The notes under the pieces: generated by a model
The model's input: the letters and a program-made list of their open reading frames with translations, nothing else
Told to the model about the DNA's origin: nothing
The model's database searches: none
Part shown: positions 30,101-59,026 of the stretch, piece after piece
Numbering within the stretch: position 1 is the stretch's first letter
Layout: every line of letters starts with the position of its first letter
Translations under genes and position numbers: made by a program
Assembly (NCBI GenBank): GCA_050633245.1
Contig: JBOEGD010000007.1
Location: 219,624-283,623 of the forward strand
Direction: 5' to 3'
Source of the DNA: Calditrichia bacterium
GTDB taxonomy: Bacteria > Calditrichota > Calditrichia > RBG-13-44-9 > J075
Length of the DNA: 64,000 nucleotides

Positions 30101-30606
30101 GCCGCGCCATGAATCTGAATCAGATTCGTTAATTCTTCACGACTAATCTGAACCTTATCTTGTGATGTTTTTTGTTGAAAGACTGTTTCGATTAGCTGAA
30201 CTTTTTCCGCAACTCGCTGAAGATCCGGTTCTGCTTTTTCGAGTAAGACATGAGCTGTCTCAATAGGCGTGTAGCTTCCGACATCTCCCAGGGCGATGTC
30301 CAGCTTGTCGTGATAGTTCTGCAACATACCGAGCAAAGACTGGATGCGGCCGAAGATAATATCGTAGTTTGTTGTGTCGCCAGCCTGAGGCATTTCTTTT
30401 AACGCATCATTTAAATCGGCGATATAAACGCGCTGTCGACTGGCAATAGAGATAAGGCTAGAGTCGTTAGACTGTTGCACAAGGGAGTAGTAAATAACGG
30501 CGAATCCAGCCATCGCAAGAAAGGCGATAAAGCCAAGACTGATCATATAGCGAAATTTCAGCTTACCTTCGCTTACATATCGAACCTGCTTTGTACTGTC
30601 GCTCAT
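27124..30606 (-). CDS. Membrane-bound hybrid histidine kinase (NarX/PilJ-like sensor, PAS, GAF, PAS, HisKA, HATPase, REC)
   Basis: Two TMs with [14 protein letters not shown] repeats, [17 protein letters not shown] and receiver MDLTIPGG. Confidence 0.92.
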
Positions 30607-30777
30607 TCCCAACTCCAAGAGTATCTGCATTCATTGCAATAGCAGTCGCAATAAATCATGCGACATGCAACCCCACATGGGGTTTCCATTTTACTTGTCT
30701 GTGACGAACTGTCTATGTCTTACCGACAAGCCGGGTTAAGATTTTAGTTGGGCAGCCAAATCTTTTATGCTTACGTC

Positions 30778-33700: not shown

Positions 33701-35397
33701 ACAGAGTAACCAAAGATGCTGCACGCTACACTATTTGCCTCAATAATTTGAAAGGCGTTTTCCTCTATAATCGGAAATACCAGAACCACATCGCTCATCC
33801 CGCCAAAGAGCCTCTGATAGCGCGCTTCACTTTGTATTGAAGCAACGGCCAACTGATTGTTCTCGACAGCAACTCCGGCGATATCAGCAGCGATTCCCAT
33901 GAGTTCGATTTGGCGCATCGTAGGAACGATTGGCACATCGCTATATATTGTTAGTGCCCCAACGGCTTTATCATTCTGTAAGAAAACCGGCATTGAGCAG
34001 GAAGACTGAATATTAAACTCTTTAGCAAATTGCTTTACCGCCTCCCAATGCCGATCGTTCTGAACATCCTCACAAATAATCAATTTATTTTCAACAATAG
34101 AACCGACACATGGGCCGTTTCCAAGCTCACAGTTCATCACCGCGCTCAGGCGACGGAATTCTTCAGGCATACCAGGTGCTGCTGCCAAATTTATCGTATT
34201 TCTCTGTTCATCGAGAATTGAAATAGAGCATCGAATACCTGGAATTTGCTCTTCGATGAATTCTGCAACTTCCTTTAGAATTTGATCGAGTGTCGTGCCA
34301 CGAGCCATCGACTCGAGCAGTCGTTTCTGGCCGGTCAAAATGTCTTCTGAAGCCTTGCGTTCGGAATTGTCTCTAATCAGTGTTTGAATACTAATTTTTC
34401 CATCACTCTGAAAAGGCAGACTCGTCATTTCAATTGTCGCAGGCAAACCATTGGCGCGAACAATTCGCTGCTCATATAAATATTCCTGGACGCCATTCTT
34501 AACGATATTCTTGAAACGTCGACGCATATCTGCCACGACTTCCACCGGAAAAAAGGCAAGCAGATCCACACCAATCAGCGTTGTTTCTTCATCTGCGGCA
34601 AGAAGCTTTGCCCCGGCAGGATTAATAAACTCAATCTTACCCATGTCGTGAACAACGATCATTTCCTGGCTATGTTCGAGCAAGCGGCGATAGCGTTCTT
34701 CACTTTTACGCATCAATTTTTCAAAACGGCTACGCTCGGTTATTTCCTGCAGCGTACCTTGGAACACAACACCATCTACCGTGCTTAGTTTATCGCCCAG
34801 GGATTCAATTTGAATTTCACGGCCGCTGCTATGCAGTCCCCGATACTCCATATCCAATGGAGTGGAAGCCGTATTCAGGCAGTCTCGGATAGCTGAGGCA
34901 ACAGAGTCGCGGTCTTCTGAATGGACAAACTCGGAAAAATCTCTGCCATGCAAATAATCTCGTGTAACACCAAAAATTTCTCCAAACCTGGGGTTTGCAT
35001 AGGTAATTTTTCCATCCTCTACCCGATAAACTCCAACCAGAGACTTTTCAACTAATGTTTCATAGCGCGGACTAAGCTGTTCTTGCAGCGAATTCAGAAG
35101 TTGATAACTACCAAATAGCAAACAGACGAATCCCAGTGGAAGAAAGAGAAAACGAAAAGCGGCACCGAGTGGTACAAGGAGGGAATATTCCTGGATTAGT
35201 TCGGGAGTTAAATTGTGAAATGCGCTGCCAACCATTGAATTTGTCAGAATTAAGCCAATGCCAAGCCAAATCGTCCAGTATCCACGCAAAGGTATTTTTA
35301 TCAGCCTTTTAGTCAAACGATAAAATGCGATGCTGGCAACAACAATAATTGAAATACGCAACAGACTCAACCACAGCATTAGACGATCCTGGTTCAT
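30778..35397 (-). CDS. Multi-PAS/GAF hybrid histidine kinase with N-terminal TM helices
   Basis: About three TMs, several PAS/PAC repeats (SEERYR, RDISERK), GAF, AHDFNNIL, GSGLGL and receiver LDLTVPGG. Confidence 0.93.
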   Translation of the reverse strand: MNQDRLMLWLSLLRISIIVVASIAFYRLTKRLIKIPLRGYWTIWLGIGLILTNSMVGSAFHNLTPELIQEYSLLVPLGAAFRFLFLPLGFVCLLFGSYQLLNSLQEQLSPRYETLVEKSLVGVYRVEDGKITYANPRFGEIFGVTRDYLHGRDFSEFVHSEDRDSVASAIRDCLNTASTPLDMEYRGLHSSGREIQIESLGDKLSTVDGVVFQGTLQEITERSRFEKLMRKSEERYRRLLEHSQEMIVVHDMGKIEFINPAGAKLLAADEETTLIGVDLLAFFPVEVVADMRRRFKNIVKNGVQEYLYEQRIVRANGLPATIEMTSLPFQSDGKISIQTLIRDNSERKASEDILTGQKRLLESMARGTTLDQILKEVAEFIEEQIPGIRCSISILDEQRNTINLAAAPGMPEEFRRLSAVMNCELGNGPCVGSIVENKLIICEDVQNDRHWEAVKQFAKEFNIQSSCSMPVFLQNDKAVGALTIYSDVPIVPTMRQIELMGIAADIAGVAVENNQLAVASIQSEARYQRLFGGMSDVVLVFPIIEENAFQIIEANSVACSIFGYSVDEMKGLRLKDLLPEDEYHRLPLQLRKLRRNRKQLLEIYGKTRDGQLIPFEVNSQIFDFNGRETVLAIGRDISERKATEKALREKEERFRSLVQYSSDIITVLEPDGTIKYISPSVEKLLGYQAPEMLNTCIFDFVHSDDLNVLQQEVKRLIDEPDFHGPLEYRIRNSNGQMTYLEAMASNLIDNPIIAGIVVNSRDITDRNTVQTALAESEERFRTIFDNAGIGILLLRLDGRILESNVALKKMLYVEDYNLRGKLFKDYYSADAGVPDHVELLEKLNLSGGRHQLECRLGQGDNPEISVQLTATLVKNSDDDPQFIILMAEDVTERNNAITALVDSEQRYRDIVENSTDCIFTHDFNGKLISVNRAMVELFAVDASDSLNNASLADFVTEESVETFEEYLQKLRDEEQNSGYLSILSRNSETVVLEYRNSLRIPVTGAPLVRVVARNVTDHMRFQKALAEEKERLSVTVKSIGDGVVAIDTQNNVILMNEVAGRLLNCNSGEVIGKGLRSLTQNLKINNGSSMSQLLEDSEDYQQNMPIEILQRDGRKYKITSTLKPMYNADRERIGSVLVLRDVTHQVALEEEVRRTQKLESLGVLAGGIAHDFNNILTAIIGNISLGKLSVSDNEVVSLRLDDAERAAMRARELTQQLLTFAKGGAPIKRAASIQDIITETAGFALRGSRSKSEFLIAPKLWNVEVDEGQISQVINNLVLNAAQAMPNGGKIYMLCENFPVYENTHFRDILLIPGNYVRIVVGDEGVGIPREYLEQVFDPYFTTKQKGSGLGLATSYSIIKRHDGYIFVESDYQKGSEFTILLPAIPELMVKKNKPSKALMNGTGKILVMDDEQTILDVASAMLDKLGYSYVLTHDGAAAIDAFNTAILENEPFDAVLLDLTVPGGMSGKDAIEELIKIEPNINALVSSGYSNDPVMAEYLSHGFKGRILKPYNVQLLGKALKEILQSTTDAVNQNSVNE

Positions 35398-35711
35398 TTT
35401 TGAGCATGCACAATGGCATTTAGCTCGTTAGGGCAAACTGTATTGGATAGTAGAAGACTGGAATGCAAAATTACCTGCCGGGATGACAATCTCAGCGCTT
35501 ATCTTGCAAGTCATCGTTCTACATTATACAACTGAAAATTGCGAATGTATATATTATTTTGCGTAGACCGGAAAAATGTCTACAGGCAGGCGGGAAAGCT
35601 TCGAGGATACAAAAGCCTTCCTGCCTCGAACGTCAAAACCTCTCAACCCTCTCCATTCGAGAGATCAACCAGGACCTTACTATGTTCGAGACAGGAAGAT
35701 CTGCTTCTGTC

Positions 35712-36884
35712 TTAGTCCATTTGTTTTCTCAAGAAGGTCGGGATATCCAGATCTTCTATATCATTATCCATACGAACATTATCGGTACCGGTCTTAAGCT
35801 GTTGTCTGTTTGGAACCTCTTCAGGCTTTTTCTTCTCACGCATAAACGTAGGAAGGTCCAACAGCTTCGGACTTGTTTCTGCGGCGACCGTTTCCTGCTT
35901 CGGCGGCTCATTTGCAACGCGCTCTTCGACCATAAACCCGGTAGCAATTACGGTAATAAAAATCTCATCCGTCAGGTTATCATCGAGTACGGCACCAAAA
36001 ATTACGTTAGCATCTTCGCCAGCCTCTTCGTAAATAATCGTTGTGGCTTCACTAACCTCATAAAGAGACATGTCTGGTCCACCGGTAATATTAACCAACA
36101 CGCCACGTGCACCGTTGATGGAAACACCTTCCAATAGCGGACTGGAGATAGCCTGTTGGGCAGCCTGAATGGCCTTACCTTCGCCACGTGCGGCGCCGGT
36201 TCCCATAAGGGCATCACCCATTTCAGCCATAATGGTGCGAACATCTGCAAAGTCCAGATTGATAAGTCCGGGAACGGTGATGAGATCGGAAATACCTTTG
36301 GTTGCATGCAGCAACACATCGTCAGCAACTTTAAATGCGTCAAGTAGCGGAGTAGACTTGTCCACTACGGCAAAAAGACGCTGATTAGGTATAACAATTA
36401 GAGTATCGACAACTTTGCGCATTTCTTTAATACCTTCTTCAGCGCGTTTTAATCTTTTTATTCCTTCGAAATTAAAGGGCTTGGTAACGATACCAACAGT
36501 AAGTGCTCCAAGCTCTTTGGCAATCTCAGCAACCACAGGTGCAGCACCTGTTCCGGTTCCACCACCCATGCCGGCGGTAACAAAAACCATGTCGGCTCCG
36601 GTAAGCAACCGGGCAACTTCTTCACGATCTTCTTCAACCGCACGAGCACCTACATCAGGATTAGCACCGGCGCCGAGTCCCTGGGTCAACATTTGACCAA
36701 TTTGCAGCTTTTGCGGTGCAAGATTTGTCTCGAGTGATTGGGAATCGGTATTTACCGCAATAAAGTCTACACCAAACAACCCCGAATTCATCATCGTATT
36801 AATTGCGTTTCCACCGGCGCCACCAACACCAATAACCTTCAGTTTCGCGTTTCGTTCTGCTCTTTCGTCAAATTCAATGGCCAT
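35712..36884 (-). CDS. ftsZ: Cell division protein FtsZ
   Basis: GVGGAGGNA, tubulin signature [17 protein letters not shown] and C-terminal [11 protein letters not shown]. Confidence 0.99.
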
Positions 36885-36954
36885 AATTTCAGCCTCCTTT
36901 TAATGGTTGATCTCTTTTTGCTATTGATCTCTCGTCAATTTATATGCAATGCGC

Positions 36955-38187
36955 TTAGAAGAAGCGCTTAAAAAACTGGCTAAAGCTAGACATCACGTCT
37001 TCCCAGAGATTCACATCGTCTCCGCGAACAAAGGACGTCTTTTCATTATATTTTGCACCGTAAAGACAAAGCCCTACCGAAGTGCTATAGATTGGACTGC
37101 GAACAGAGTCTGTAAGACCACCAAGATATTTAGGTAATCCAAGTCTTACCGGAACACCCCATATCTTTTCTGCCATATCAGCAGTTCCCTCAAGAAGAGC
37201 ACCGCCACCGGTAATCACCGCTCCGGCAGCCATAAGTTCGAGCAAACCGGACTTATGCATCTTCTGATAGGCCAGGGTCAACAGCTCTTCCATGCGTGGG
37301 GCAACGATATCAACAAGAACCGATTTGGAAATCGTTCTGGCGGGACGCCCACCAACTCCCGGCACCATTATGGTATCGCTTTCGGTGAGGTTTTCGCGCG
37401 TTACGGAACCGTGCTGTAGTTTAATTTCTTCCGCTTGATCTGGCGGAGTACGCAATCCGATTGCGATATCATTCGTTACATGCGTTCCACCCAGCGCAAC
37501 GACAGAAGTATGCTGAATATGTCCATCGAAGAACATTGCAATATCAGCGGTTCCACCACCAAAGTCGACCAGCGTTACACCCAGCGATCGCTCATCATCA
37601 TCCAGAACAGCCAGGCTGGAAGCAAGCGGTTCCAGAATAATGTCTTCAACATCATATCCGGCGCGCTGCACGCTTCGCACTATGTTCTGTGCCGACGTAA
37701 CGGCAGCCGTTACAATGTGAACTTCTACTTCCAAGCGAACACCGGACATACCGATCGGATCCGGAATACCATCCTGATCATCCACTATAAATTCTTGTGG
37801 AATTACATGGATAATCTCACGATCAATTGGAAGAGCAAGTGCCTTGGCAGCATTTATAGCGCGATCGACATCTTCCTGTGTGATCTCATGATCATCGCGG
37901 GAAACACCGACCATGCCTTTGCTATTGAGGCTGCGAATATGGTCTCCGGCAATACCGACATAAACCGTATCGACCTCAACACCAGCCATAATTTGAGCTT
38001 CGTCCAGGGCAGAGCGCACCGATGAGACGGTCTTGTCAATATTGACAACCACCCCTTTGCGCAATCCATGCGAAGGTGAACTTCCGATGCCGACAACATT
38101 CAGTTTTCCGTCGGTATCCTCTTTGACGATAACAGCACATATCTTTGTCGTGCCGATATCCAGTCCGGTTATAATGCGACCTTCCAT
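36955..38187 (-). CDS. ftsA: Cell division protein FtsA
   Basis: GLDIGTTKI, GLRKGVVVNID, PIGMSGVRLE, DFGGGT and ITGGGALL. Confidence 0.99.
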   Translation of the reverse strand: MEGRIITGLDIGTTKICAVIVKEDTDGKLNVVGIGSSPSHGLRKGVVVNIDKTVSSVRSALDEAQIMAGVEVDTVYVGIAGDHIRSLNSKGMVGVSRDDHEITQEDVDRAINAAKALALPIDREIIHVIPQEFIVDDQDGIPDPIGMSGVRLEVEVHIVTAAVTSAQNIVRSVQRAGYDVEDIILEPLASSLAVLDDDERSLGVTLVDFGGGTADIAMFFDGHIQHTSVVALGGTHVTNDIAIGLRTPPDQAEEIKLQHGSVTRENLTESDTIMVPGVGGRPARTISKSVLVDIVAPRMEELLTLAYQKMHKSGLLELMAAGAVITGGGALLEGTADMAEKIWGVPVRLGLPKYLGGLTDSVRSPIYSTSVGLCLYGAKYNEKTSFVRGDDVNLWEDVMSSFSQFFKRFF

Positions 38188-38207
38188 ATTCAGACTCTCT
38201 GGTTTAG

Positions 38208-38984
38208 TTAGTCTTTCTTTTGCAAAATTATCCGATCCCTGAAGGTCAGGTCGAGACGCTGCACAGTCGGCAACATTTCGGCGATCGGCTTTTTATTCAA
38301 AAATTCACTCAGTAGAAACAAGCGTTCATAATGGCGTTCTTTTCCAAGACGAACCAGTGCCCCACCACGCACCAGATAGAGCTCTGGCCAGCGATCTTTC
38401 TTAATGTTAATCTCCGAAATCAATGAGAGTAGTTTTTCATCCACTTCACGGATTTTCTTGACTAGTTCTATGGCCTGAAAAAGCGGCGTGCGATCTTCTT
38501 CAAGTTCGGCAACACTGAGCCCGGTAACCAGCGGCAGGTTACCAACCGGCATACGTGGCAAACGCTCTAACATAGTTCCTGACTCGTCTACCATATAAAC
38601 AGATTTGTCGATCATATATAGAACAGGAACGCGTTCTTTCACGCTTATCAATACGGTTGCCGGCAGTGCACGAGCGACATTCGCAGCACGGATATATTTG
38701 TTCTCCATTAGATTGCTGGTTATATCCTCAACGCTCATTCGAAACATTGCTTCTTCAATTTCAATGCCGCTAGCCTCGGCAATATCCTCTTGCTCCAAAT
38801 AGTTGTTTCCGCTTATTTCCATGTTTTCAACACGAAAAAAGTCGCTGCGAAAGAACAGCTGCATGCCGATAGAATAGACGATGTAAAAACCAATAAATGC
38901 TACCGCCCAAATCAGAGCTTCCCGTGGAGAGGGATAAAACATCGTTTTTCGCTTTAAGACTTTCCGCTTCATTTCAGTATCCAA
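38208..38984 (-). CDS. ftsQ: Cell division protein FtsQ/DivIB (POTRA)
   Basis: Single TM, FFRVENMEISGN POTRA start, ISVKERVP and LDLTFRDRII. Positioned before ftsA. Confidence 0.9.
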   Translation of the reverse strand: MDTEMKRKVLKRKTMFYPSPREALIWAVAFIGFYIVYSIGMQLFFRSDFFRVENMEISGNNYLEQEDIAEASGIEIEEAMFRMSVEDITSNLMENKYIRAANVARALPATVLISVKERVPVLYMIDKSVYMVDESGTMLERLPRMPVGNLPLVTGLSVAELEEDRTPLFQAIELVKKIREVDEKLLSLISEINIKKDRWPELYLVRGGALVRLGKERHYERLFLLSEFLNKKPIAEMLPTVQRLDLTFRDRIILQKKD

Positions 38985-39007
38985 TAACAGGTATAGACCA
39001 TTTTTTC

Positions 39008-40135
39008 TTAACTCGACGCTGCCTTTGGCAGCATGTCCACTATTTCTTCAGCTATTCGGCCAGCAGCACCGGGGCGAGCCAGTGTCTTCCAGGCTCTTCC
39101 CTGCTCTGTTCGCTTTTCTGATGACTCCAGAAGTGTGCTTAAGGCATCGAAAAGATGATCCGCCCATTTTTCACCTTCTTTAACCATTATTGCGGCACCG
39201 GCTTCTTCGACCATTTGGGAATTTAATTCCTGATGATTTCCTGCGGCGTATGGATAAGGCACCAAGATAGTCGACTTTCCGGCAATCGCGAGTTCGGCAA
39301 GGCTGCTTGCCCCTGCTCTGCAAACGATGACGTCTGCTGCAGCAAAAGCAGCTGCCATATTCTCAATATATGGCAGAACTAAAACGCGCTTGTCATTTAC
39401 CGTAAGCTTTGACTTAACCGCCTCGTATTCCCCGCTTCCAGTTTGCCAGATTACTTGAACCGTTTTATCTGCCAAAAGCTGCGGTAGTAAGGCATTAATA
39501 GCATTATTGATTGCACGTGATCCCTGACTGCCGCCAAATACAAACAGCGTGCGTTTATCAGCTTCCAGCTTCCAGTGTGCAATCGCCTCTTCGCGAGTGG
39601 TCTCACCCATTTTGCGAATTGGATTGCCGGTTATTACCAACTTCTGTCGATACGCATCGAAATGCTTCGCAGCCTGCTCGAAAGCAAGACAAATTTTCTG
39701 GGCATAACGCGCCAGAAGGCGCGTTGTTACACCCGGATGAGCATCCTGCTCCTGTATCAGCACCGGCACCCCCGTACGGGAAGCCATGTATAAAATAGGG
39801 CCGGTTACATAGCCGCCCATACCAATGGCAACTTCCGGCTTAAAATCGCGAACAATTTTCCAACTGCTAATCAAACTGCTTACCAGCTTGAATGGAAACA
39901 GCAGGTTCTTCATGGTAAAACTCCGGGTAAAACCGGAAATCCAGATTGTGCGCATCGGAAGATCATGCTTTGGCACAATCTGCGTTTCGATGCCGCCTAT
40001 GCCACCGACATAAAGGAACTGAAAATTGCCACGTTCTTTCAGCGCTTCAATTGTTGCCAGCGCTGGGTAAACGTGTCCACCAGTTCCACCACCGGCGACA
40101 AGAATGCGTCCTGTATGTTCCGTGTTATTCACCAT
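39008..40135 (-). CDS. murG: UDP-GlcNAc:lipid I N-acetylglucosaminyltransferase
   Basis: GGGTGGHVYPA, GGYV, QEQD, TGNPIR, GGSQGS, RAGASS and HQELN. Confidence 0.98.
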   Translation of the reverse strand: MVNNTEHTGRILVAGGGTGGHVYPALATIEALKERGNFQFLYVGGIGGIETQIVPKHDLPMRTIWISGFTRSFTMKNLLFPFKLVSSLISSWKIVRDFKPEVAIGMGGYVTGPILYMASRTGVPVLIQEQDAHPGVTTRLLARYAQKICLAFEQAAKHFDAYRQKLVITGNPIRKMGETTREEAIAHWKLEADKRTLFVFGGSQGSRAINNAINALLPQLLADKTVQVIWQTGSGEYEAVKSKLTVNDKRVLVLPYIENMAAAFAAADVIVCRAGASSLAELAIAGKSTILVPYPYAAGNHQELNSQMVEEAGAAIMVKEGEKWADHLFDALSTLLESSEKRTEQGRAWKTLARPGAAGRIAEEIVDMLPKAASS

Positions 40136-40141
40136 AAATCC

Positions 40142-41353
40142 TTAAGCTGTACGACGTTTCTGACTCGTCTTTGCTCTTCCCTTTGTCGTCTTCGCCTTGC
40201 GTAGCGGCGGCTTTGTTGGACGATTCTTTTGCAAATTGTAACCTTTAACCTGTTTTTTGCCCAGCGTATCATTTGCAATGCGCATCAGCAAACCGGCATA
40301 CATGCAGGAGAACAAGAGTGCGGTTCCACCATAACTCACGAAGGGTAACGGTAGTCCGGTCGCTGGTAAAAGCTGCATGGTCACCATCATGTTCACCAGG
40401 GCATAGAGGGTAAAATGAGTTGTTAGACCTACCACCAGATAGAAATCAAATCTATTCTGCGTTCGCGAGGCGGTTTTGATGCCGCGTGCCAGGATAATCA
40501 GGAAGAGCGCAATTACCGCACAGGTTCCTAAAAAGCCAAGCTCTTCGCCGATGATTGCGAAAATAAAGTCTGTGTGTGCTTCAGGCAGAAAAAACATCTT
40601 CTGCGTACTGTGTGCAAAACCAACGCCGTTTATACCGCCGCTTCCAAAACTCACCAGCGATTGATATACCTGATATCCGCTTCCGCTTATATCATCTCCC
40701 GGTGAAAGGAATGACAGCATACGCTGCATTTTATACGGCGATATTATCACCGCGATTATCAGCATTGGTACAAAAGACAATCCTGTAAGTGCCAGATGCG
40801 ATAGTTTAACGGGCGAGACGAACAACATCGTCAGGCAAATAGAGATCAGCATAAATGCACTACTAAAGTCAGGCTGCATCAGCACGAGCAAGGCAAACAT
40901 TGCGATGTAAAACAGGTGCGGAAACAAGCCTTCAGAATAACTGTTCAAATAGCGCTCTTTGCGACTCAGCGAATCAGCAAAGAAGAAAATCAGCGTAAAT
41001 TTTGCCACGTCCACAGCCTGGAAATGAATAAAGCCCCAGTGAATCCAGCGTCCGCGTTCGATAAAAGCTGCGTAAAAAAGCAGTGCAAGGCTCAGCATTA
41101 AGAAATACCAGGTATACCCATAGAACTTGCGATACGGCAGGGCATACATAATTGTCATTCCGGCAAGACCAACGATGAGGTACATCAGATGGCGCTTCAG
41201 GAAAAACAGGTGGTCGCCCCAGTATTGTCGCGCATAGAAAGCACTTGAGCTGTAAACCATAATGATTCCCAGCACAATCAGCAGGAAGAACGATACGACC
41301 AGCCATTTGTCTATATAGTGCTTTTTCACAGATTTTGCTCCAGCTCTAAACAA
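40142..41353 (-). CDS. ftsW: SEDS peptidoglycan polymerase FtsW
   Basis: Polytopic membrane protein with MVYSSS, QPDFS, GYQ, LPEAHTDFIFAIIGEELG and TGLPLPFVSYGG. Confidence 0.97.
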   Translation of the reverse strand: MFRAGAKSVKKHYIDKWLVVSFFLLIVLGIIMVYSSSAFYARQYWGDHLFFLKRHLMYLIVGLAGMTIMYALPYRKFYGYTWYFLMLSLALLFYAAFIERGRWIHWGFIHFQAVDVAKFTLIFFFADSLSRKERYLNSYSEGLFPHLFYIAMFALLVLMQPDFSSAFMLISICLTMLFVSPVKLSHLALTGLSFVPMLIIAVIISPYKMQRMLSFLSPGDDISGSGYQVYQSLVSFGSGGINGVGFAHSTQKMFFLPEAHTDFIFAIIGEELGFLGTCAVIALFLIILARGIKTASRTQNRFDFYLVVGLTTHFTLYALVNMMVTMQLLPATGLPLPFVSYGGTALLFSCMYAGLLMRIANDTLGKKQVKGYNLQKNRPTKPPLRKAKTTKGRAKTSQKRRTA

Positions 41354-41390
41354 GAATTAATTAACGTATAAACGTCTATTTCTATTACGA

Positions 41391-42500
41391 TTACCGAACT
41401 TTAAATAGTGCAAGACTGAGAAGCGCTAAAAGCACGCCTACAATCCAAAAGCGCACAACGACCTTCGCTTCCGGCCAGCCTTTTAACTCAAAGTGATGAT
41501 GAAGTGGTGCCATCTTAAATATCCGTCTTCCCTCTCCGAATTTTTTTCGGGTATATTTGAAGTAAGACGTTTGCATAATCACGCTGATTGTCTCGGCGAC
41601 AAAAACTCCGCCAATCAGTATGAGAAATATTTCCTTCTTCACCAGAATGGCGCATGCTCCAAGCGTACTTCCCAAAGCGAGTGAGCCCGTATCTCCCATA
41701 AAAACCTGCGCCGGATAACTGTTATACCAGAGAAACCCCATTGCCGCGCCTACAATTGCCAGACAGTAAACGGCCAGCTCTCCACTTCCCGGTAAAAAAA
41801 CGATATTCAGATAGTCGCTAAACTTATAGTGCCCGGTTACATAACTTATTCCCGCGAAGGCCAACATGGCAATAGCCATCAAACCAGTCGCCAGTCCATC
41901 AAGGCCATCCGTTAGGTTAACCGCATTTGAAGAGGCCGTTAACACAAAAATGACCAGCGGGATATAGAAAATGCCAAATTGAATTTCATAATTTTTCAGA
42001 AAGGGAAGGCTGGTATTCGCGTTCAGCCCCTGAGCAATAAAGGCATCATTAAAGTAAATCGAGCAGCCCAGAATAAGTCCCAAGGTAAACTGACCAACAA
42101 TTTTGTATCGTCCAATAAGGCCACGCTTCATCTTCTTAACAACTTTCAGGTAATCATCGAGAAATCCAACGACGCCCATCCAAAGAGTACAAAGCAACAG
42201 CATCTGTACGTAGAAGTTATCGAGCTTGGCCCACATCATAACAGAAATCGTTACCGAGCCAAGGATAATGAGCCCGCCCATAGTTGGGGTGCCCTTTTTA
42301 GCAAGATGAGATTCAGGACCATCGAGACGGATTGTTTCACCAAGCTGATGTCGCCTTAGCAGATTGATAACACGTGGACCAATAACCAGGCAGAGGAAAA
42401 GCGAGGTAATGGCCGCAAGAGCAGCACGAACGGTGATATAACGAAAAACGTTAAACCCGAAGAAGAAATCCTTAAACTCAAATAAAAAATCTGCCAGCAT
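41391..42500 (-). CDS. mraY: Phospho-N-acetylmuramoyl-pentapeptide transferase
   Basis: KKGTPTMGG, GFLDDYLK, SNAVNLTDGLDGLA, FMGDTGSLALG and MAPLHHHFE. Confidence 0.99.
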   Translation of the reverse strand: MLADFLFEFKDFFFGFNVFRYITVRAALAAITSLFLCLVIGPRVINLLRRHQLGETIRLDGPESHLAKKGTPTMGGLIILGSVTISVMMWAKLDNFYVQMLLLCTLWMGVVGFLDDYLKVVKKMKRGLIGRYKIVGQFTLGLILGCSIYFNDAFIAQGLNANTSLPFLKNYEIQFGIFYIPLVIFVLTASSNAVNLTDGLDGLATGLMAIAMLAFAGISYVTGHYKFSDYLNIVFLPGSGELAVYCLAIVGAAMGFLWYNSYPAQVFMGDTGSLALGSTLGACAILVKKEIFLILIGGVFVAETISVIMQTSYFKYTRKKFGEGRRIFKMAPLHHHFELKGWPEAKVVVRFWIVGVLLALLSLALFKVR

Positions 42501-42520
42501 CCTCTAAATCCTTCCGGTTA

Positions 42521-43912
42521 CTACCGCCCGGTTGCCGCAACATCCATGTGGCTTAATACGGTCTCCATACGCATCCCGCGTGACCCTTTTAGTAACACAA
42601 TGTCGCCTTTCTGCAGATAGTCTTGCAGGTGATCGGCTATTGCTTCATGTGAACTATACCAGTTGCATTCAGTCTGATCCGCGTTTCCGCGAATCTCACT
42701 CAGCGCGGCTTTGCTTGCCGGGCCATACAACAAGACTAAATCTAACTGTTCATCAACAGCAAGCCGTCCCATGGCCTGATGTTCTTCCATCTCAAAATCT
42801 CCAAGTTCCAGCATATCTCCCATTACCAGAACTGCCCGACCACCCTTTTCCTTCATTGCAGCGAGATACCGTATTGCCGCTGCCATCGAGTCGGGATTCG
42901 CGTTATAAGCATCATTTAAATAAAGAATGCCATCGCGGCGAAAGTATTCCATACGCTTTCCCGTTGGGCGAAACGCTTCCAAAGCTTTTTTAATCTGTTC
43001 TACCGACAAACCGGCATTTAAACCCACCGCAGCAGCAAACAGCGCATTCATCAATTGGTGCTCACCGGGAATTGCCAGCTTAATATTCGTTTCACCGTTT
43101 AGAAGGAACGTTGCACAACCAAGATCATCCAGTTCTGCCAACATGCCCCATACCTCACAGTCTGCCGTTAAACCAACACGGATAGACCTGGCAGCTTTTC
43201 CCTTATAATTGCGTAACCGTTCATCTTCCATATTTATGAAGATGGTTCCGGATTCAACGGCGTCTAAAAGCGCCGTTTTTTCTTCATAAATTGCATCAAG
43301 ACCATCAAAGAAGCCGACATGACCTTTACCAACGTTCGTGACTAATGCATCATCCGGTTTCGCCAATGAGGCTAAGAGACCTATCTCACCCGGATGATTG
43401 GTTCCCATTTCCAAAATTGCAAATTTTGAATCAAAATCGAGATCCAACAGCATCAGAGGCAGACCGATATGATTATTTTTATTCCCCTCGCTACGAAAAA
43501 CAGAAAACCCTTCTGCCAAAACGGCCGCAATCATTTCACGAGTGGTTGTCTTTCCGTTTGAGCCGGTAACACCGATCACCTGTCCACCATAAAAACCGCG
43601 GTGCCAGGCCGCCAACTGCTGCAAAAAGTCCAGCGTATTATCTACTGCAACAACATCCCCCTCGAGTGGATGAGCGGCCAGCCAATCATGCTGAACAACC
43701 ACTGCACCTGCCTCTTTTTCCAGAGCAGTAGCGGCATAATCATGTCCATCATGATTCTCACCTTTTATTGCGATAAACAAGTCACCAGCCGCAATCGTCC
43801 GGCTGTCTATCGACAGCGGAAGATAGCCCGTTTCAGGGCTGCTCAGCTTTGCCTGACAGGGATAACCGTTCAGGAAATCGATCAGTGCGCGATGGTGACT
43901 ATTTGTTTTCAC
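42521..43912 (-). CDS. murF: UDP-MurNAc-tripeptide--D-Ala-D-Ala ligase
   Basis: SIDSR, DGHDY, TGSNGKTTT, GNKNNHIGLP, EMGTNHPGEI, NDAYNANPDSM, GDMLELG and KGSRGMRME (MurF-type motifs). 463 aa, single ligase. Confidence 0.96.
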   Translation of the reverse strand: MKTNSHHRALIDFLNGYPCQAKLSSPETGYLPLSIDSRTIAAGDLFIAIKGENHDGHDYAATALEKEAGAVVVQHDWLAAHPLEGDVVAVDNTLDFLQQLAAWHRGFYGGQVIGVTGSNGKTTTREMIAAVLAEGFSVFRSEGNKNNHIGLPLMLLDLDFDSKFAILEMGTNHPGEIGLLASLAKPDDALVTNVGKGHVGFFDGLDAIYEEKTALLDAVESGTIFINMEDERLRNYKGKAARSIRVGLTADCEVWGMLAELDDLGCATFLLNGETNIKLAIPGEHQLMNALFAAAVGLNAGLSVEQIKKALEAFRPTGKRMEYFRRDGILYLNDAYNANPDSMAAAIRYLAAMKEKGGRAVLVMGDMLELGDFEMEEHQAMGRLAVDEQLDLVLLYGPASKAALSEIRGNADQTECNWYSSHEAIADHLQDYLQKGDIVLLKGSRGMRMETVLSHMDVAATGR

Positions 43913-43939
43913 TAAATTCTCTCTACTTAAAAACTCTTG

Positions 43940-46069
43940 TTATGGTTTACAAAACAACATGACTTCAGCATTTCCGGCCAGCTTGCGACCAGGAGCCGGC
44001 GTTTGCTTCTGAACAATTCCATTTCCTTCAACGGAAACAGATACATCCCATTGTCCCAGCACCTGCAATGCTTCCTTCAAACTCAGGCCGGTCAGCTTCG
44101 GCATATTTTCCTCTGCATGCAGACGTTCCGTCCAAAGCTGCACATCCTCAACTTCTGTCAAATCGGTATAGGCTGCCGGGTGCTGTCTTACAACCATATC
44201 CCCTTCCCCAACTACCTGATATGATAGCCCCTTCAATGCAATAGAATGACCGGCATCAGTAACGCTTAGCCCTTCTACAGCAGGCAAATAATTCTTGATT
44301 CGCGGCAGATCTGTGCTCGCCAGTTGCGTTTGAAATGGTCTGAGGTCTTCACCGGGCAAACCGGCAATACGACGAGCTATTCGTTTGAATGCTGGTGCAG
44401 CAACCTGACTTCCATAGTAGCCATTACGTGGGTTATTGATCACTATCATCATAACAAACCGCGGCTCTTCTGCGGGAAAGAAGCCGACAAATGAGCCGAC
44501 ATGACTGCTGGACGAGTACGTTTTTGTAAGCGAGCTAATTTTCTGAGCCGTTCCGGTTTTACCTGCGATCGAAAAGTCTGCCAGCTTGGCTGTTTGACCG
44601 GTTCCGCGCTCAACAGCGCGCGTTAGAACCTTTCTGACACGTCCGGCAGTTTCGCTCGAAATAACCTGACGCAAAACCTGAGGGCTATTAGCAGCAACAA
44701 CCTCACCACGTTCGTTCAACACGCGTTTCATTACATAAGGCTGAAGCAGCATTCCACCATTTGCAATGGCCGCATACGCGGAGACAACCTGTAGCGGTGT
44801 AACCGCAACTTCGTAACCAATACTCATATAATAAATAGAGCCTTTTGAGTAATTTCCCGGCTGATGCAGGATTCCCGGAGACTCTGCGGGTAGATCGATA
44901 CCGCTGCGCGCGCCGAAACCGAAGTCACGGGAATAGCGATAGAAATCCTGCTTATCAAATTTGTCTGCCAGCTTTATCACACCGATATTACTTGATTGCT
45001 CGAACACCTGACTGGCAGAGAGATACTTAAATTTCTTGTGATCGCGAATCACCTTGTTTACCAGCTTAAAGCTACCGTTCTCACAATAAACCAGCTCGTT
45101 GTCAATATCGAGCTCCAGCTGCTCGAGCAGAAGCGTCATGGCAACCATCTTATAGGTAGAGCCTGGCTCATATGGGTCGGTAATCACGCGATTGCGGAAG
45201 TTAGCCAGCTTATAGTTGCCGTATTGGTTCGGGTTAAATCCAGGATAATTCGCCATACCAAGCACTTCACCGGTATGAGGATTAAGCAGCACGGCCGTGC
45301 CGTTTTTCGCTTTGTGTTCCTTAACAGCGTTCTGCAATTCTTCTTCAAGAATTCCCTGATAAACCATATCAATAGTCGTTTCGACGGTCAGACCATTTTG
45401 CGGCTCCACGGTAGGGAAATTGATATTCGGGAATTGATTCCCGAGTGCATCACGTAAATAAATGGACCAGCCAGACTGTCCGGATAGCAGCTTGTCATAC
45501 TGTAGCTCCAAGCCGCCTTTGGCATAGTTTTCATAGTCGCAATAACCAACCAGCTGCGCAGCTTGCTGTCCGTACGGGTAATAGCGGCTGAACTTTTTCT
45601 CCAGCTGAAGCCCCGGCAGTTTCAATGACCGGAGCTTTTCTGCCTGCTCCAGACTAACGCGTTTGTTTAAATAGACAAAGGGTTTACCGGCCGGCATCTT
45701 TTTAAGGAGGGATCGGGTTGGGACCTTTAATATCTCGGCAATACGTTTAGCTGCAGCCTGGCGATCATCCAACTGACCGGGACGAACAGCTAAAGTAAAC
45801 TGCACTAAATCAACAGCAATTGGTTGATTATTGCGATCAACAATAGAACCACGCATACCGGGCAGTTCGCGTCGATTTTCCAAATGCCCACGCGCGATAC
45901 TGCGATAGTGATCATGACGTACGATCTGTACGTAGATTAACCGCCCAATTATGGCGGCGAATCCCAGCAACCAGATTAGAGTCAGAATACCGAGTCTATT
46001 CTGAATACCCTGCTCTAAGGGGTTCTTGCTGAAGATCTTGCTTTTTTTCTTGCTGGTCTTTCTGAACAT
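43940..46069 (-). CDS. ftsI: Class B penicillin-binding protein FtsI with two PASTA domains
   Basis: TM, RGSIVDRN, GLELQYD, catalytic EPGSTYK, SSN and KTGTAQ, then C-terminal PASTA repeats. Start uncertain (46069 or 46078). Confidence 0.95.
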   Translation of the reverse strand: MFRKTSKKKSKIFSKNPLEQGIQNRLGILTLIWLLGFAAIIGRLIYVQIVRHDHYRSIARGHLENRRELPGMRGSIVDRNNQPIAVDLVQFTLAVRPGQLDDRQAAAKRIAEILKVPTRSLLKKMPAGKPFVYLNKRVSLEQAEKLRSLKLPGLQLEKKFSRYYPYGQQAAQLVGYCDYENYAKGGLELQYDKLLSGQSGWSIYLRDALGNQFPNINFPTVEPQNGLTVETTIDMVYQGILEEELQNAVKEHKAKNGTAVLLNPHTGEVLGMANYPGFNPNQYGNYKLANFRNRVITDPYEPGSTYKMVAMTLLLEQLELDIDNELVYCENGSFKLVNKVIRDHKKFKYLSASQVFEQSSNIGVIKLADKFDKQDFYRYSRDFGFGARSGIDLPAESPGILHQPGNYSKGSIYYMSIGYEVAVTPLQVVSAYAAIANGGMLLQPYVMKRVLNERGEVVAANSPQVLRQVISSETAGRVRKVLTRAVERGTGQTAKLADFSIAGKTGTAQKISSLTKTYSSSSHVGSFVGFFPAEEPRFVMMIVINNPRNGYYGSQVAAPAFKRIARRIAGLPGEDLRPFQTQLASTDLPRIKNYLPAVEGLSVTDAGHSIALKGLSYQVVGEGDMVVRQHPAAYTDLTEVEDVQLWTERLHAEENMPKLTGLSLKEALQVLGQWDVSVSVEGNGIVQKQTPAPGRKLAGNAEVMLFCKP

Positions 46070-46556
46070 AATAGTCAAACGCCTTCTGGTCTACCCTGAG
46101 CACGGAACGATTTCTTGCGGCATCCAGCCCGAGCCGCTCACGTGTCACCTTCAGGATGCGTTGATTGTTCTTCAACCTGGTATTAATATTGGCTTTCAGT
46201 CTACTATTCTCGCTTTGAAGGCGAAGAATTTTATCCTGAAGCACCTTGGTTTCTTTTACTGTTTCGGTAACCTTATACTCTTTCCATTGGTAGACCAGAA
46301 ATAATCCGGCCACTACCATAATTGCGGCAAAAATGGTTGTTATAACAGTCGCACCATAAAGCGTATTGCGCACGCCTTTGCGGAACTGTAGCTTGGCAAC
46401 TTCTGCCCGGGTTTGCTTTTTCTTGCGTTTCCGGGAAGCAGCTCTTGCTTTCGTCGTCGCAGAAGCAGCCTTGGAAGGATTGCCCTTCGCCGCGCTTTTA
46501 CGCTTAGCGGGCGCCTTCTTTGCCGTTTTTTTTCTGTTCTGATGCTGCAGAGCCAT
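45996..46556 (-). CDS. ftsL: FtsL-like bitopic coiled-coil divisome protein with a long basic N-terminus
   Basis: Lies between rsmH and ftsI. One TM followed by coiled coil LQDKILRLQSENSRLK and RERLGL. Confidence 0.75.
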   Translation of the reverse strand: MALQHQNRKKTAKKAPAKRKSAAKGNPSKAASATTKARAASRKRKKKQTRAEVAKLQFRKGVRNTLYGATVITTIFAAIMVVAGLFLVYQWKEYKVTETVKETKVLQDKILRLQSENSRLKANINTRLKNNQRILKVTRERLGLDAARNRSVLRVDQKAFDYYVQKDQQEKKQDLQQEPLRAGYSE

Positions 46557-47503
46557 TAGTAATCCAGTTCTTTATATGCCGTCAACTTCTTTGCAACCCG
46601 CATTCGGGCACTTCGGGAACGCGGGTTTTCTGCTACCTCTGCCTCACTGGCAACAACACCGCGTTCGAGTATCTTTACTTCTTTTTCCTTGTCGCAGCGA
46701 CACACAGGAAACTCTTGTGGACAAATACAGTCGCGCTGTTTTTCCTGCAAAAATCGTTTTACAATTCTATCTTCTAATGAATGGTAGCTTATTACAACCA
46801 ATCGCCCATCCTGCTTCAAAGAATCAAACGCCTGCTGTAGCGCTTTTTCCAATCTTTCCAGCTCACGGTTCACTTCAATTCGAAGCGCCTGAAAAACACG
46901 AGCAAGTGACTTATTCAAAAAGCGCTCGCCGGTAATTCGCCTTACCACATCGACAAGCTGTGAACTACGCGTAAAGGCCTCAACCTGACGCACAGCAACA
47001 ATATCTCGTGCAATCGCCCGCCAGTGACGTTCTTCTCCGTAACTGCGTATGATCCGCGCCAGCTCATCCTGCGAATAGTCATTCAGAATGTCTTCTGCCG
47101 TTAGACGTTGCCGCTGATCGAAGCGCATATCGAGCGGCCCATCTACGCGAAACGTAAAACCGCGTGAGGCCTCATCGATTTGGTACGACGATATCCCGAG
47201 ATCGAAGAACACACCGTCGACCGGGATCTGCATAAGCTCGTAGAGCACAACGTCCAGTTGATCGTAGAAGACCTGTCTGGCGTCAAAATTATCAAAGCGC
47301 TTTAACCGTTCGGTGGCGTAGGCTATTGCGTCTGCATCTGCATCGATGCCTATAACCCGGCCGCTGGTCCCCAGCGCGTCTAAAAATCGTTCGGTATGTC
47401 CGCCACCGCCAAGGGTGCAGTCGACATAGATACCTGATTCATTTTTTAAAAGGTGTGCAACACTCTCTTCCGGTAATACCGGGGCATGGTATTGACTGCT
47501 CAT
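46556..47503 (-). CDS. rsmH: 16S rRNA m4C1402 methyltransferase
   Basis: HAPVL, DCTLGGGGH, DLGISS, GPLDMR, FQALRIEVN, SYHSLEDRIVK and NPRSRSA. Confidence 0.99.
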   Translation of the reverse strand: MSSQYHAPVLPEESVAHLLKNESGIYVDCTLGGGGHTERFLDALGTSGRVIGIDADADAIAYATERLKRFDNFDARQVFYDQLDVVLYELMQIPVDGVFFDLGISSYQIDEASRGFTFRVDGPLDMRFDQRQRLTAEDILNDYSQDELARIIRSYGEERHWRAIARDIVAVRQVEAFTRSSQLVDVVRRITGERFLNKSLARVFQALRIEVNRELERLEKALQQAFDSLKQDGRLVVISYHSLEDRIVKRFLQEKQRDCICPQEFPVCRCDKEKEVKILERGVVASEAEVAENPRSRSARMRVAKKLTAYKELDY

Positions 47504-47539
47504 GGCCTGTTCCTTTCAACTGACTCCGGCGCATGCGCG

Positions 47540-47980
47540 CTAGATATCCAGATCCAGGGAGATGCGCTGAAACTCTGCTTCTGTTTTGCGCACATAGTCC
47601 TCATAGCGTGCCGGCTGCCAAAGCTCAATCTTTTGCTCGTAACCAACAACAAGAACTTCTCCTTCGAGCCCGGCGTAATCGATAAGATTGGTCGTAAGGT
47701 TCAATCGTCCCTGCTTATCGATTCGTTGCTCAGAGGCCTGATACATTAAGCGGCGAGAAATGACGGCAAACTCACGGTCACTCGTCAAGCGCGATTTAAT
47801 CGCGGCAACCGTATCTTGCCAGGATTGCAGGGGATACATTGCGATACAGGTTTCGGATGCACGAACGAGAATAAGCGTATCCTCGTCTTCTTCCCGAAGA
47901 TTCTTGCGAAACTTCGCCGGGAAGTTGATCCGTCCTTTCGTATCCAATGTGCTTTTAAAACTGCCCCAGAACCCACTCAT
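47540..47980 (-). CDS. mraZ: Transcriptional regulator MraZ
   Basis: Two AbrB repeats (LDTKGRINFPAKFR; IDKQGRL) and KIELW. First gene of the dcw cluster. Confidence 0.97.
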   Translation of the reverse strand: MSGFWGSFKSTLDTKGRINFPAKFRKNLREEDEDTLILVRASETCIAMYPLQSWQDTVAAIKSRLTSDREFAVISRRLMYQASEQRIDKQGRLNLTTNLIDYAGLEGEVLVVGYEQKIELWQPARYEDYVRKTEAEFQRISLDLDI

Positions 47981-48002
47981 TAGGCCTCTTTTCACCCTTT
48001 AG

Positions 48003-48068
48003 ATGGAATAAAGTGGAATTTTCTCCACTCAACACCACCAATATCACAGCTTTTTATTTATAAATCAA
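48003..48068 (-). promoter_or_regulatory. dcw promoter with MraZ-binding repeats
   Basis: Minus strand TTGATT-N17-GATATT is followed by GTGGTG-N4-GTGGAG. Two more (A/G)TGGAA boxes lie on the opposite strand in the same 10-bp phase. Confidence 0.65.
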
Positions 48069-48233
48069 GAAGAAAAGTAAAAATTGAGGAATAACAATAC
48101 TTCTCAGCTGCTGTCAGGGTTCGCTTAAACTTATCCCTGAAAATGAGACAAAATTCCGGTATATCTACTTAAATCTCCGGCTGAAGTCTGAAAAGCCAAC
48201 AATTTTGGAAGGGTAATATGAGCGATGGAGGAC

Positions 48234-48272
48234 AAAAAAAGCCCGCCGGAATGAATTCCGGCGGGCAAAAAA
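48234..48272 (-). terminator. Rho-independent terminator after queA
   Basis: GCCCGCCGGAAT-nn-ATTCCGGCGGGC, a 12-bp stem followed by T7 on the minus strand. Confidence 0.9.
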
Positions 48273-48309
48273 CATTAGAGAGCCAGGCGCGAAATGAAAA
48301 ATCACATCG

Positions 48310-49383
48310 CTACAGAATGAGCATCGAGTCGCCATAGGAATAGAAACGATACTTTTCTTTAACCGCCTGTTTGTAAGAATGCATAACAAACTCATGTCCA
48401 CCAAAGGCTGACGTCAGCATTAGCAGTGTGGACTGCGGCAGATGAAAATTCGTTATTAAGCGATCAACTGCACGAAACTGATGCGGAGGAAAGATAAAGC
48501 GGTCCGTCCAGCCAGTTCCCTGTCTGACAAATCCGGAACGGTCTGCAACCGTCTCAAGAACGCGAACAGATGTCGTTCCAACTGCAATCACGGAATTACC
48601 ATCATCGCGTGCCTCATTAATAGCACGTGCGGTTTCCTTGGTAATCTCATAGAACTCAGAGTGCATCTGGTGGCGAGAGATATCATCTACCTGCACCGGC
48701 TTAAATGTGCCAAGTCCGACGTGCAGCGTTACAGTCACGACATTCACTCCCTTGGCCTTCAACGCATCCATCAGCTCGGTTGTAAAGTGCAGACCGGCAG
48801 TCGGCGCTGCTACAGCTCCACGCCTGGTCGCGTAAACCGTCTGGTAATATTCACGATCACGCGGTTCCGGATCACGCTTGATATAGGGCGGCAGTGGTGT
48901 TTGACCCACTTCTTCCAATATTTCAAAGAAGTCGCCATCACAGTGCACTTCAATAATGCGTCCACCTGAGACCGTATTATCAATGATATCGCAGGAAAAG
49001 CGCTCATCAAATACAATCTTATTTCCAAGGCGCACTTTTCGAGCCGGTTTTACCATCACTTCCCAAATCCCGTTTTCGAGATTGCGAAGCAGAAACACCT
49101 CTACCTTGGCACCCGTTTTATCCTTCATCCCGATAAGACGGGCAGGAAAAACAGACGTGTCATTTACAACCAGACAGTCGCCGGGCTTAAAGTATTCGAG
49201 TATTTCATCGAATTTGCGATGTACGATTTCGTGTGTCCTGCGGTTCAAGACCATCATTCGACACTGATCGCGTTCTTCAAGTGGGTATTGTGAAACTAGC
49301 TTATCAGGAAGATTATATTCGAAATCTGCCAGTTTCAACTTAATGCTATTATCATCTTCAAAAAAGTTCTTGCTGGAATCCAT
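48310..49383 (-). CDS. queA: S-adenosylmethionine:tRNA ribosyltransferase-isomerase
   Basis: [44 protein letters not shown] and YRFYSYGD. Start uncertain. Confidence 0.98.
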
Positions 49384-56632: not shown

Positions 56633-56636
56633 TCTA

Positions 56637-58983: not shown

Positions 58984-59026
58984 GAATTTATTGTTTGGCA
59001 AGAGCATGCACCAGTTTAAGATTTTT

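Follow-up and report, generated by a model that had tools for sequence, protein, structure and literature searches.

The window analysed here is a stretch of 64,000 nucleotides (G000:C7:219624-283623) from the genome of a member of the Calditrichaceae in the phylum Calditrichota (hereafter G000; 6.35 Mb in 59 contigs, with an estimated completeness of 97.13%), and it carries a division and cell wall (dcw) cluster in which the slots of the peptidoglycan ligase genes murE, murD and murC are closed. MurC and MurD are regarded as drug targets and as steps that wall synthesis everywhere requires, and half of this family of large-genome, apparently free-living sediment bacteria is without both, with the other wall machinery kept. 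The gene content of these genomes suggests that their stem peptide is probably taken over whole from other bacteria by the recycling ligase Mpl.

The reduced dcw cluster

All 11 genes of the cluster lie on the minus strand in the order mraZ-rsmH-ftsL-ftsI-murF-mraY-ftsW-murG-ftsQ-ftsA-ftsZ. This order, the strand and the three short spacers had been described in a first-pass annotation of the window and were confirmed by the ends of the open reading frames (ORFs) and by family models. The features are as follows, in window coordinates.

47540..47995, minus strand: mraZ (TIGR00242, 106.7 bits, cut-off 98.35)
46556..47503, minus strand: rsmH, also called mraW (TIGR00006, 335.2 bits)
45996..46556, minus strand: ftsL-like gene, a weak match (TIGR02209, 27.6 bits, under the cut-off of 42.45; DivIC, 24.9 bits) whose position is conserved in relatives
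43940..46078, minus strand: ftsI, a class B penicillin-binding protein (PBP) with a C-terminal PASTA domain (Transpeptidase 236.1, PBP_dimer 80.8, PASTA 48.5 bits)
43913..43939: 27-bp spacer by ORF ends, the murE slot of relatives, with no remnant
42521..43912, minus strand: murF, the D-Ala-D-Ala adding ligase (TIGR01143, 403.3 bits, cut-off 288.6, full length)
41391..42500, minus strand: mraY (TIGR00445, 391.8 bits)
41354..41390: 37-bp spacer by ORF ends, the murD slot of relatives
40142..41353, minus strand: ftsW (TIGR02614, 340.2 bits, cut-off 337.5)
39008..40135, minus strand: murG (TIGR01133, 308.4 bits)
38985..39007: 23-bp spacer by ORF ends, the slot of murC, often with murB, in relatives
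38208..38984, minus strand: ftsQ (POTRA_1, 61.4 bits)
36955..38187, minus strand: ftsA (TIGR01174, 443.5 bits)
35712..36884, minus strand: ftsZ (TIGR00065, 440 bits)

In the canonical arrangement, murE, murD and murC each stand in their own slot, and in G000 none of them does. FtsI, MurF, MraY, FtsW, MurG and FtsQ are 712, 463, 369, 403, 375 and 258 amino acids long, and each dcw protein is covered end to end by its own family model, which leaves no room for a fused ligase in the neighbours of the slots. Searches of window positions 35000-48500 by tblastn with MurC, MurD and MurE of relatives revealed no remnant of the three genes, the only match being a paralogous one to murF. The earlier statements that the slots hold neither remnants nor fusions thus held up, and the statement that the catalytic motifs are intact stands as full-length family matches, not residue by residue. 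The slots are closed inside an intact contig of 385 kb. Contigs from public sequencing runs over the junctions were short, of low depth and 90-99% alike, and none spanned a junction with 31 letters on each side; the runs compared with the junctions shared just 0.20, 0.11 and 0.07 of the sampled words.

Mur ligases and partner enzymes elsewhere in the genome

A search of all contigs with the Mur_ligase_M model, followed by naming with NCBIfam models, identified five Mur-ligase genes in G000, namely the murF of the window and four genes on other contigs, and no sixth ligase domain was found in any frame of the assembly. These four genes and the other early enzymes of the pathway are located as follows.

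Contig C32: MurE (NF001126, 531 bits, cut-off 373)
Contig C24, 59479-60870: Mpl (TIGR01081, 411.3 bits, cut-off 388.7)
Contig C27: MurF-like paralog without the N-domain (213 bits, under the cut-off)
Contig C20: FolC (Mur_ligase_M match)
Contig C23: MurB, together with MurA (380 amino acids, 215 bits)
Contig C23: divergent MurA (TIGR01072, 308.5 bits, under the cut-off; NF006873, 312.3 bits, cut-off 297), with the catalytic PGGC...GER loop kept
Contig C16: Ddl

No gene in the 59 contigs passed the cut-off for MurD or MurC. The best match to the MurD model TIGR01087 reached 92.6 bits (cut-off 211.95) and the best match to the MurC model TIGR01082 reached 329.9 bits (cut-off 335.1), both from the Mpl gene, compared with 385-435 bits for MurD and 481-574 bits for MurC in the genuine proteins of relatives. 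A separate tblastn search of all contigs with MurC, MurD, MurE, MurB and MurI of relatives matched only the known ligase genes and MurB, and returned no gene or fragment of MurC, MurD or MurI. The reduced cluster is more than REARRANGEMENT: murC and murD are not in the assembly, and murE is present only as a divergent copy. The suspected loss of murC and murD is therefore genuine at the genome level and is not a simple relocation, whereas murE had been called missing too early and murB, murA and ddl are merely located elsewhere. Neither an acquired set of replacement ligases nor a new tripeptide-assembling enzyme, both raised in the first-pass annotation, was found.

The MurF-like paralog on C27 (C27:44044-45615; L003:1006-2577, with the real start probably near L003:2217) was considered as a substitute for MurD and rejected. 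It consists of the M and C domains in about 400 amino acids, has no UDP-binding N-domain and adjoins an MqnA-like gene. Genes of this type occur in 40 of 41 relatives at 33-61% identity, with or without MurD, and constitute a widespread uncharacterised family of Mur ligases.

Distribution of the loss among relatives

Two sets of genomes were compared, 16 species genomes of the family and a wider set of 41 relatives. MurD was found over the cut-off in eight of the 16 family genomes and was absent from G000, G004, G005, G007, G008, G011, G012 and G014, and the same eight genomes (hereafter the loss genomes) also lacked a true MurC. In the wider set, MurD and MurC were each over the cut-off in 31 of the 41; the other misses were, for MurD, G030, where a partial gene sits at the end of a contig, and the 62%-complete G035, and, for MurC, G022 (a fragment at a contig end) and again G035. 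Among genomes of the phylum at least 85% complete, MurD was found in 62 of 71, the nine misses being six members of the family's loss group together with the isolated cases G049, G068 and G070, and outside the family it was found in 54 of 57.

Comparison of the dcw order across relatives, as the first-pass annotation had proposed, showed that the reduced order ftsI-murF-mraY-ftsW-murG-ftsQ recurs in the family in six further assemblies, G004 (seen in part), G005, G007, G008, G011 and G012. The full order ftsI-murE-murF-mraY-murD-ftsW-murG-murC-(murB)-ftsQ was read in G001, G002, G003, G010, G013, G016, G017, G038 and G040 and partly in G006 and G009, with the segment ftsI-murE-murF read in G001, G003, G010 and G040. 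In addition, a remnant of the murD N-domain of 98 amino acids (34-36% identity, E ~1e-12) lies between mraY and ftsW in G008 (L065:8837-9130) and G012 (L067:11964-12257). No such remnant was found by tblastn at the slot of the other loss genomes, G000 included.

These data make it scarcely credible that murC and murD are present and were missed through assembly gaps, binning loss or insensitive tools. G000 is incomplete and fragmented, all but one of the eight loss genomes consist of several contigs, and the profile search starts with a loose first look that may miss 2-3% of weak matches. However, both genes are gone from the same eight genomes, including G008, a single contig of 6.28 Mb with the murD remnant in its slot, and G012, which is 99% complete in 20 contigs, and this shared pattern does not fit an assembly gap. 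The closed slots within a long contig and the empty tblastn search of G000 speak against an artefact as well, and control genomes gave the expected MurC and MurD matches.

Eight dcw proteins were concatenated for a quick-search tree (18 genomes, 3446 columns), which placed the loss genome G011 with the canonical G003 (support 100) and the loss genome G004 with the canonical G009 (97), while G005, G008 and G012 grouped together (98). At least four changes were forced on this tree, and an approximately unbiased test rejected a single clade of the seven loss genomes (p = 0.00045), with the caveats that all markers come from one locus, that the loss group was named after the first tree had been seen and that the G009 assembly is fragmentary, with 6% contamination. 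The pairing of G003 and G011 is in line with their genus labels. A history of several losses, or of losses followed by regain, suggests that the ancestor of the family could already dispense with the de novo ligases. G003 is 100% complete and has a full dcw cluster without any MurI match; its end branches are long for MurC (0.98, against 0.008-0.35 in other family members) and MurE (0.58, against 0.20-0.26), whereas its branch in the concatenated tree is an ordinary 0.28. In G003 the same erosion may be at an early stage. The literature searched contained no report of wall genes lost in Calditrichota.

The relocated MurE and its partial loss

The MurE on C32 is intact and of the meso-diaminopimelate (mDAP) type, with DNPR at residue ~410, the motif that marks such enzymes. 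Its identity to the dcw MurE of relatives is 35-41%, and proteins of its own type were found, besides G000, only in G004 (66% identity), G005 (59%) and G008 (53%). These form a separate clade with a support of 100 in the Shimodaira-Hasegawa-like approximate likelihood ratio test (SH-aLRT), outside the clade of dcw MurE from families f1 and f3 (99). Judged from this phylogeny, the C32 enzyme is not the vertical orthologue of the dcw gene.

MurE was not found in G007, G011 and G012, each of which contains four Mur_ligase_M genes (MurF, Mpl, the paralog and FolC). On contig C13 of G012, the flanks of the G008 murE locus are contiguous at 86-95% identity, and what is left of the gene between them is an internal piece of 195 bp (74%) and ~88 bp of the 5' end (remnant at C13:178037-178266). 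The contiguous flanks and the murE pieces identify a deletion scar rather than a gap, which was seen in G012 only, and MurE is thus dispensable in the family. No conserved neighbour of mpl or of the relocated murE was found as a candidate for a new enzyme.

Identity of Mpl

The identity of Mpl was examined with models, trees and motifs. The protein passes the Mpl model TIGR01081 and stays below the murC cut-off (330.3 against 335.1 bits). Mpl and MurC were split with an SH-aLRT support of 100 in a quick tree of 39 rows, and the Calditrichia Mpl formed a clade (98) beside the Mpl of other phyla. The best solved relative is 3HN7, Mpl of Psychrobacter arcticus (281 bits, compared with ~203 bits for MurC), and the identity to Enterobacterales Mpl is 38-41% over the full length.

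The structural report describes an Mpl-specific loop, (S/T/C)AFFDKRSK, not found in MurC-F, and proposes the C-domain residues RR, FAHH, EPRSNT and SNG for tripeptide binding (PMC3060825). The loop of G000 reads CAFFDKRPKF, with a single S-to-P change common to all 21 Calditrichia Mpl rows, and is a gap in the MurC rows. The C-domain motifs of G000 are KRRME, FAHHPTAI, FEPRTNT and TNGSLGG, including two conservative S-to-T changes. These motifs are identical between loss and canonical genomes and are lacking in the MurC rows. Moreover, the Mpl branches of loss genomes are no longer than those of MurC-bearing relatives, and the trmJ-mpl and mpl-response-regulator synteny is common to both groups. 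Motifs, branch lengths and synteny together indicate a normal Mpl passed on vertically, with nothing to suggest retooling, so that the sequences identify it as the ancestral orthologue and not as a converted MurC.

D-Glutamate supply and the retained steps

MurI, the glutamate racemase, passed the cut-off in 27 of the 41 relatives; profile search found it in none of the eight loss genomes, and tblastn did not find it in G000. The remaining genomes below the cut-off, apart from three that bear MurC and MurD and are taken up below, were G002 and G039, whose matches are partial or split, and G035, whose match is weak. D-amino-acid transaminase, another source of D-glutamate (D-Glu), gave no match over the cut-off in any of the 16 family genomes. 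G000 contains three genes of the Asp/Glu-racemase family, and its best transaminase match is a class IV aminotransferase that scores as IlvE.

The loss of MurI bears on de novo synthesis with replaced enzymes, in which Mpl would add L-Ala in place of MurC, an unrecognised enzyme would add D-Glu and the relocated MurE would add mDAP. A multicopy plasmid with E. coli mpl rescues a murC(ts) mutant, and L-Ala is a substrate of the solved Mpl at 0.7 per min, compared with 1.4 for the dipeptide and 260 for the tripeptide (PMC3060825). MurE is intact in G000, G004, G005 and G008, and MurA and MurB are kept in G000, which speaks for such a route. Nevertheless, this route is unlikely. Mpl displays no shift towards MurC, with motifs identical in loss and canonical genomes and no change of rate, and the only spare Mur ligase, the ~400-amino-acid paralog, is present in nearly all relatives irrespective of MurD. 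With MurI gone, D-Glu has no evident source; G007, G011 and G012, without MurE, have too few ligases for stepwise assembly; and neither mpl nor the relocated murE has a conserved neighbour.

The later steps are kept throughout the loss group. Ddl passed the cut-off in all eight loss genomes (303-332 bits), all eight have an Mpl-type match and LdcA (the latter being present in 39 of the 41 relatives), and MurF, MraY, FtsW and MurG are present in the seven of the eight whose cluster was read. The sugar branch is less uniform, since searches for MurB (E <= 1e-10) and MurA (E <= 1e-40) came back empty in G007, G008, G011, G012 and G014. These absences are less secure because G038, a closed genome of another family with canonical murC-F, also fails the MurA threshold and shows only weak MurB matches; either MurA and MurB are divergent there or the sugar branch is unstable in other parts of the class as well.

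The stepwise losses of MurI, then MurC and MurD, then MurE, together with the sugar-branch genes not found in five genomes, could be read as decay of the whole wall pathway, the retained genes being leftovers in cells with little or no peptidoglycan. Such decay is very unlikely, since MurF, MraY, MurG, FtsW, FtsI and Ddl are intact in the loss genomes with scores like those of canonical relatives, and Mpl and LdcA are kept in every one. The genome also encodes a full elongasome 10-20 kb upstream of the window, in a locus 8-19 kb upstream (C7:200691-211743) where RodA, PBP2, MreD, MreC and MreB are followed by PurH and PurN and then by LdcA (~10 kb upstream), a ROK kinase and an alternative GlmU.

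Peptidoglycan catabolism and a possible dipeptide branch

A peptidoglycan-catabolic cluster occupies one strand of C13:1-19677 (L187) in G000, and a large amidase is encoded on C2.

Contig C13, one strand: NagZ-like/PBP4B-like fusion (963 amino acids), two solute:sodium symporters (SSS), NagB-like protein, MurQ (403 bits)
Contig C13, same strand, continued: L-Ala-D/L-Glu-epimerase-like protein, DUF1611/DgcN-like protein, DacB, LysA, NlpC/P60 peptidase, second epimerase/DgcA-like protein
Contig C13, opposite strand: Gate-domain membrane protein
Contig C2, 258385-261579 (L250:3385-6579): Amidase_2 protein (N-acetylmuramoyl-L-alanine amidase) of 1064 amino acids with a C-terminal type IX secretion system (T9SS) sorting domain

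The C2 amidase is probably exported to detach stem peptides from foreign walls. Its domains, the C13 cluster and the LdcA locus are consistent with a cell that cuts stem peptides from the walls of other bacteria and processes the muropeptides. The two epimerase-like proteins of C13 reached 220 and 166 bits on models of L-Ala-D/L-Glu epimerases, both under the cut-offs.

These genes also permit an off-nucleotide de novo route, in which L-Ala-L-Glu from an L-amino-acid ligase (LAL) or from proteolysis would be converted to L-Ala-D-Glu by a dipeptide epimerase of the enolase superfamily, loaded by Mpl and extended by MurE. Epimerisation of the dipeptide off the nucleotide would require no free D-Glu and no MurI, MurC or MurD, so that the loss of MurI would be explained. 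All parts exist in G000: the two epimerase-like genes, MurE and a LAL-type ligase at C5:41186-42475 (ATP-grasp_4 and LAL_C2), and the solved Mpl accepts L-Ala-D-Glu weakly (PMC3060825). If true, the lineage would not depend on others and would carry a de novo branch of peptidoglycan synthesis not described before. The route is nonetheless quite improbable: it would not work in the relatives without MurE, and the epimerases are encoded among MurQ, LysA and a DgcN-like gene, in a cluster that is clearly catabolic. Next after the LAL gene comes a gene for a major facilitator superfamily (MFS) transporter (C5:41186-43608; L248:1186-3608), the usual layout for an exported dipeptide, and this locus may make a dipeptide product.

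No link to the wall emerged for any of the ATP-grasp genes of G000 listed as side matches of the Ddl model (three biotin carboxylases, PurD, two CphA-N-like ligases and the LAL-type ligase). The two CphA-N-like ligases, stand-alone ATP-grasp enzymes similar to the N-terminal part of cyanophycin synthetase, are encoded at C4:216631-217725 and C1:156781-157938.

Probable stem peptide loading from salvaged muropeptides

Mpl-type salvage was the first option raised in the first-pass annotation and is the one favoured here: the stem peptide is probably loaded en bloc by Mpl from salvaged muropeptides of other bacteria. With Mpl, LdcA, Ddl and MurF kept and MurC, MurD and MurI not found, it is simplest to suppose that the tripeptide enters ready-made. 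Where relatives lack both MurE and its substrate line, this en bloc entry is nearly unavoidable, while the MurE kept in G000 suggests a second entry via the dipeptide. From the observed gene content and its distribution, and from the orthology of Mpl and its conserved motifs, we infer which way the flux runs, that peptides are taken up and that the cells depend on outside muropeptides.

For the proposed main pathway, stem peptides would be released outside the cell from foreign walls and imported by a carrier, and LdcA would trim the imported peptide to the tripeptide. Mpl would then join the tripeptide en bloc to UDP-N-acetylmuramic acid (UDP-MurNAc), which would still be made by MurA and MurB in G000. 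The addition of D-Ala-D-Ala by MurF and Ddl would follow, and MraY, MurG, FtsW/FtsI and RodA/PBP2 would act as usual. The C32 MurE may serve a side route in which Mpl loads a salvaged dipeptide and MurE extends the resulting UDP-MurNAc-L-Ala-D-Glu, and the enzyme may be on its way to dispensability.

Several observations weigh against this pathway. As for uptake, neither AmpG (no match at E <= 1e-5, TIGR00901) nor a cytoplasmic AmpD was found in G000, the C2 amidase being its only Amidase_2 protein; no muropeptide importer was identified there, and the candidates are the two symporters and the Gate-domain protein of C13. MurI was also not found in G003, G015 and G034, which bear MurC and MurD, and the three racemase-family genes and the IlvE-scoring aminotransferase could supply some D-Glu. 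The intact, DNPR-bearing MurE in four of the eight loss genomes argues that the UDP-MurNAc-dipeptide intermediate persists there, and loading of the dipeptide by the solved Mpl is ~190-fold slower than that of the tripeptide (PMC3060825). A genome of 6.35 Mb that keeps MurA, MurB and Ddl does not resemble a streamlined dependant. For the relatives without MurA and MurB, an AmgK/MurU pair was not identified: APH-domain ORFs were listed in G000, G007, G008, G010 and G012, and none of the 35 ORFs scanned around ten APH sites in G000, G007 and G008 was a nucleotidyltransferase beside an APH-domain ORF. A replacement enzyme of unknown family is also possible.

If salvage is true, muropeptide dependence, proven in culture only in one isolate of Fidelibacterota, also occurs in Calditrichota, and its presence in large genomes would mean that such dependence is not tied to genome streamlining. 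It would give a concrete reason for resistance to pure culture and a natural case for asking whether Mpl alone carries the whole flux of wall synthesis. The family would also preserve the steps of the transition, making the order of events testable: G003 without MurI only; G000, G004 and G005 without MurC and MurD and with a spare MurE; G008 with the murD scar; G012 with the murE scar; and five genomes in which MurA and MurB were not found.

Other genes of the window

Directly downstream of ftsZ, positions 27124-35397 encode two giant hybrid sensor kinases (1168 and 1539 amino acids) with many PAS and GAF domains. An aerotolerance-type operon of the BatA-BatD / MoxR-DUF58-VWA kind lies at 54797-63199.

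Comparison with known systems

A missing murC slot has likewise been recorded in a genome survey for Verrucomicrobium spinosum, where a MurB/C fusion accounts for it (PMC4803751). No such fusion exists in G000, whose MurB is 380 amino acids long and whose assembly holds no further ligase domain. Tannerella forsythia, of the Fibrobacterota-Chlorobiota-Bacteroidota (FCB) group, is described in two reports as lacking MurA and MurB and living on the wall material of its neighbours (PMC5790795, PMC7670621). It resembles the five Calditrichaceae in which these two enzymes were not found and differs from G000, in that T. forsythia misses the sugar part and has the peptide ligases, whereas G000 keeps the sugar line and misses the first two peptide ligases.

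In E. coli and Psychrobacter arcticus, Mpl recycles the tripeptide as a UDP-MurNAc:L-Ala-gamma-D-Glu-mDAP ligase together with LdcA. The Mpl of G000 passes the Mpl model and groups with the Mpl of Enterobacterales and with 3HN7, and LdcA is present. In E. coli, however, Mpl is an ATP-saving accessory beside the essential MurC-MurD-MurE line, whereas in G000 it would be the sole entry of the stem peptide, and the AmpG and cytoplasmic AmpD of E. coli-type recycling were not found.

The closest parallel is Fidelibacter multiformis IA91. The abstract of its description by Katayama et al. (2024, Nature Microbiology) reportedly proposed that such dependency may occur in 16 phyla, judged by gene absence. 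IA91 belongs to the Fidelibacterota (formerly Marine Group A), and its nearest cultivated relative by 16S is Calorithrix insularis of the Calditrichota; in culture it was shown to build its wall from exogenous muropeptides, and its genome of 2.79 Mb is described as unable to provide MurNAc, D-Ala, D-Glu, DAP and lysine (PMC11652737; also cited in PMC13507758). Both are Gram-negative FCB-group bacteria of sediments or aquifers, and IA91 has lost its own wall precursors, has kept recycling genes and uses muropeptides for wall and food (PMC11652737). The IA91 kind of pattern, loss of de novo genes with kept recycling genes, is found in G000, where MurC, MurD and MurI were not found and Mpl and LdcA are present. 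In contrast to IA91, G000 has a genome of more than twice the size, keeps MurA, MurB, Ddl, MurF and a MurE, and has lost only MurC, MurD and MurI, and the Calditrichaceae display graded intermediates whose distribution rejects a single loss. Muropeptide-based wall synthesis is thus already known from IA91, and what the Calditrichaceae add is the large genome, the partial state and the intermediates.

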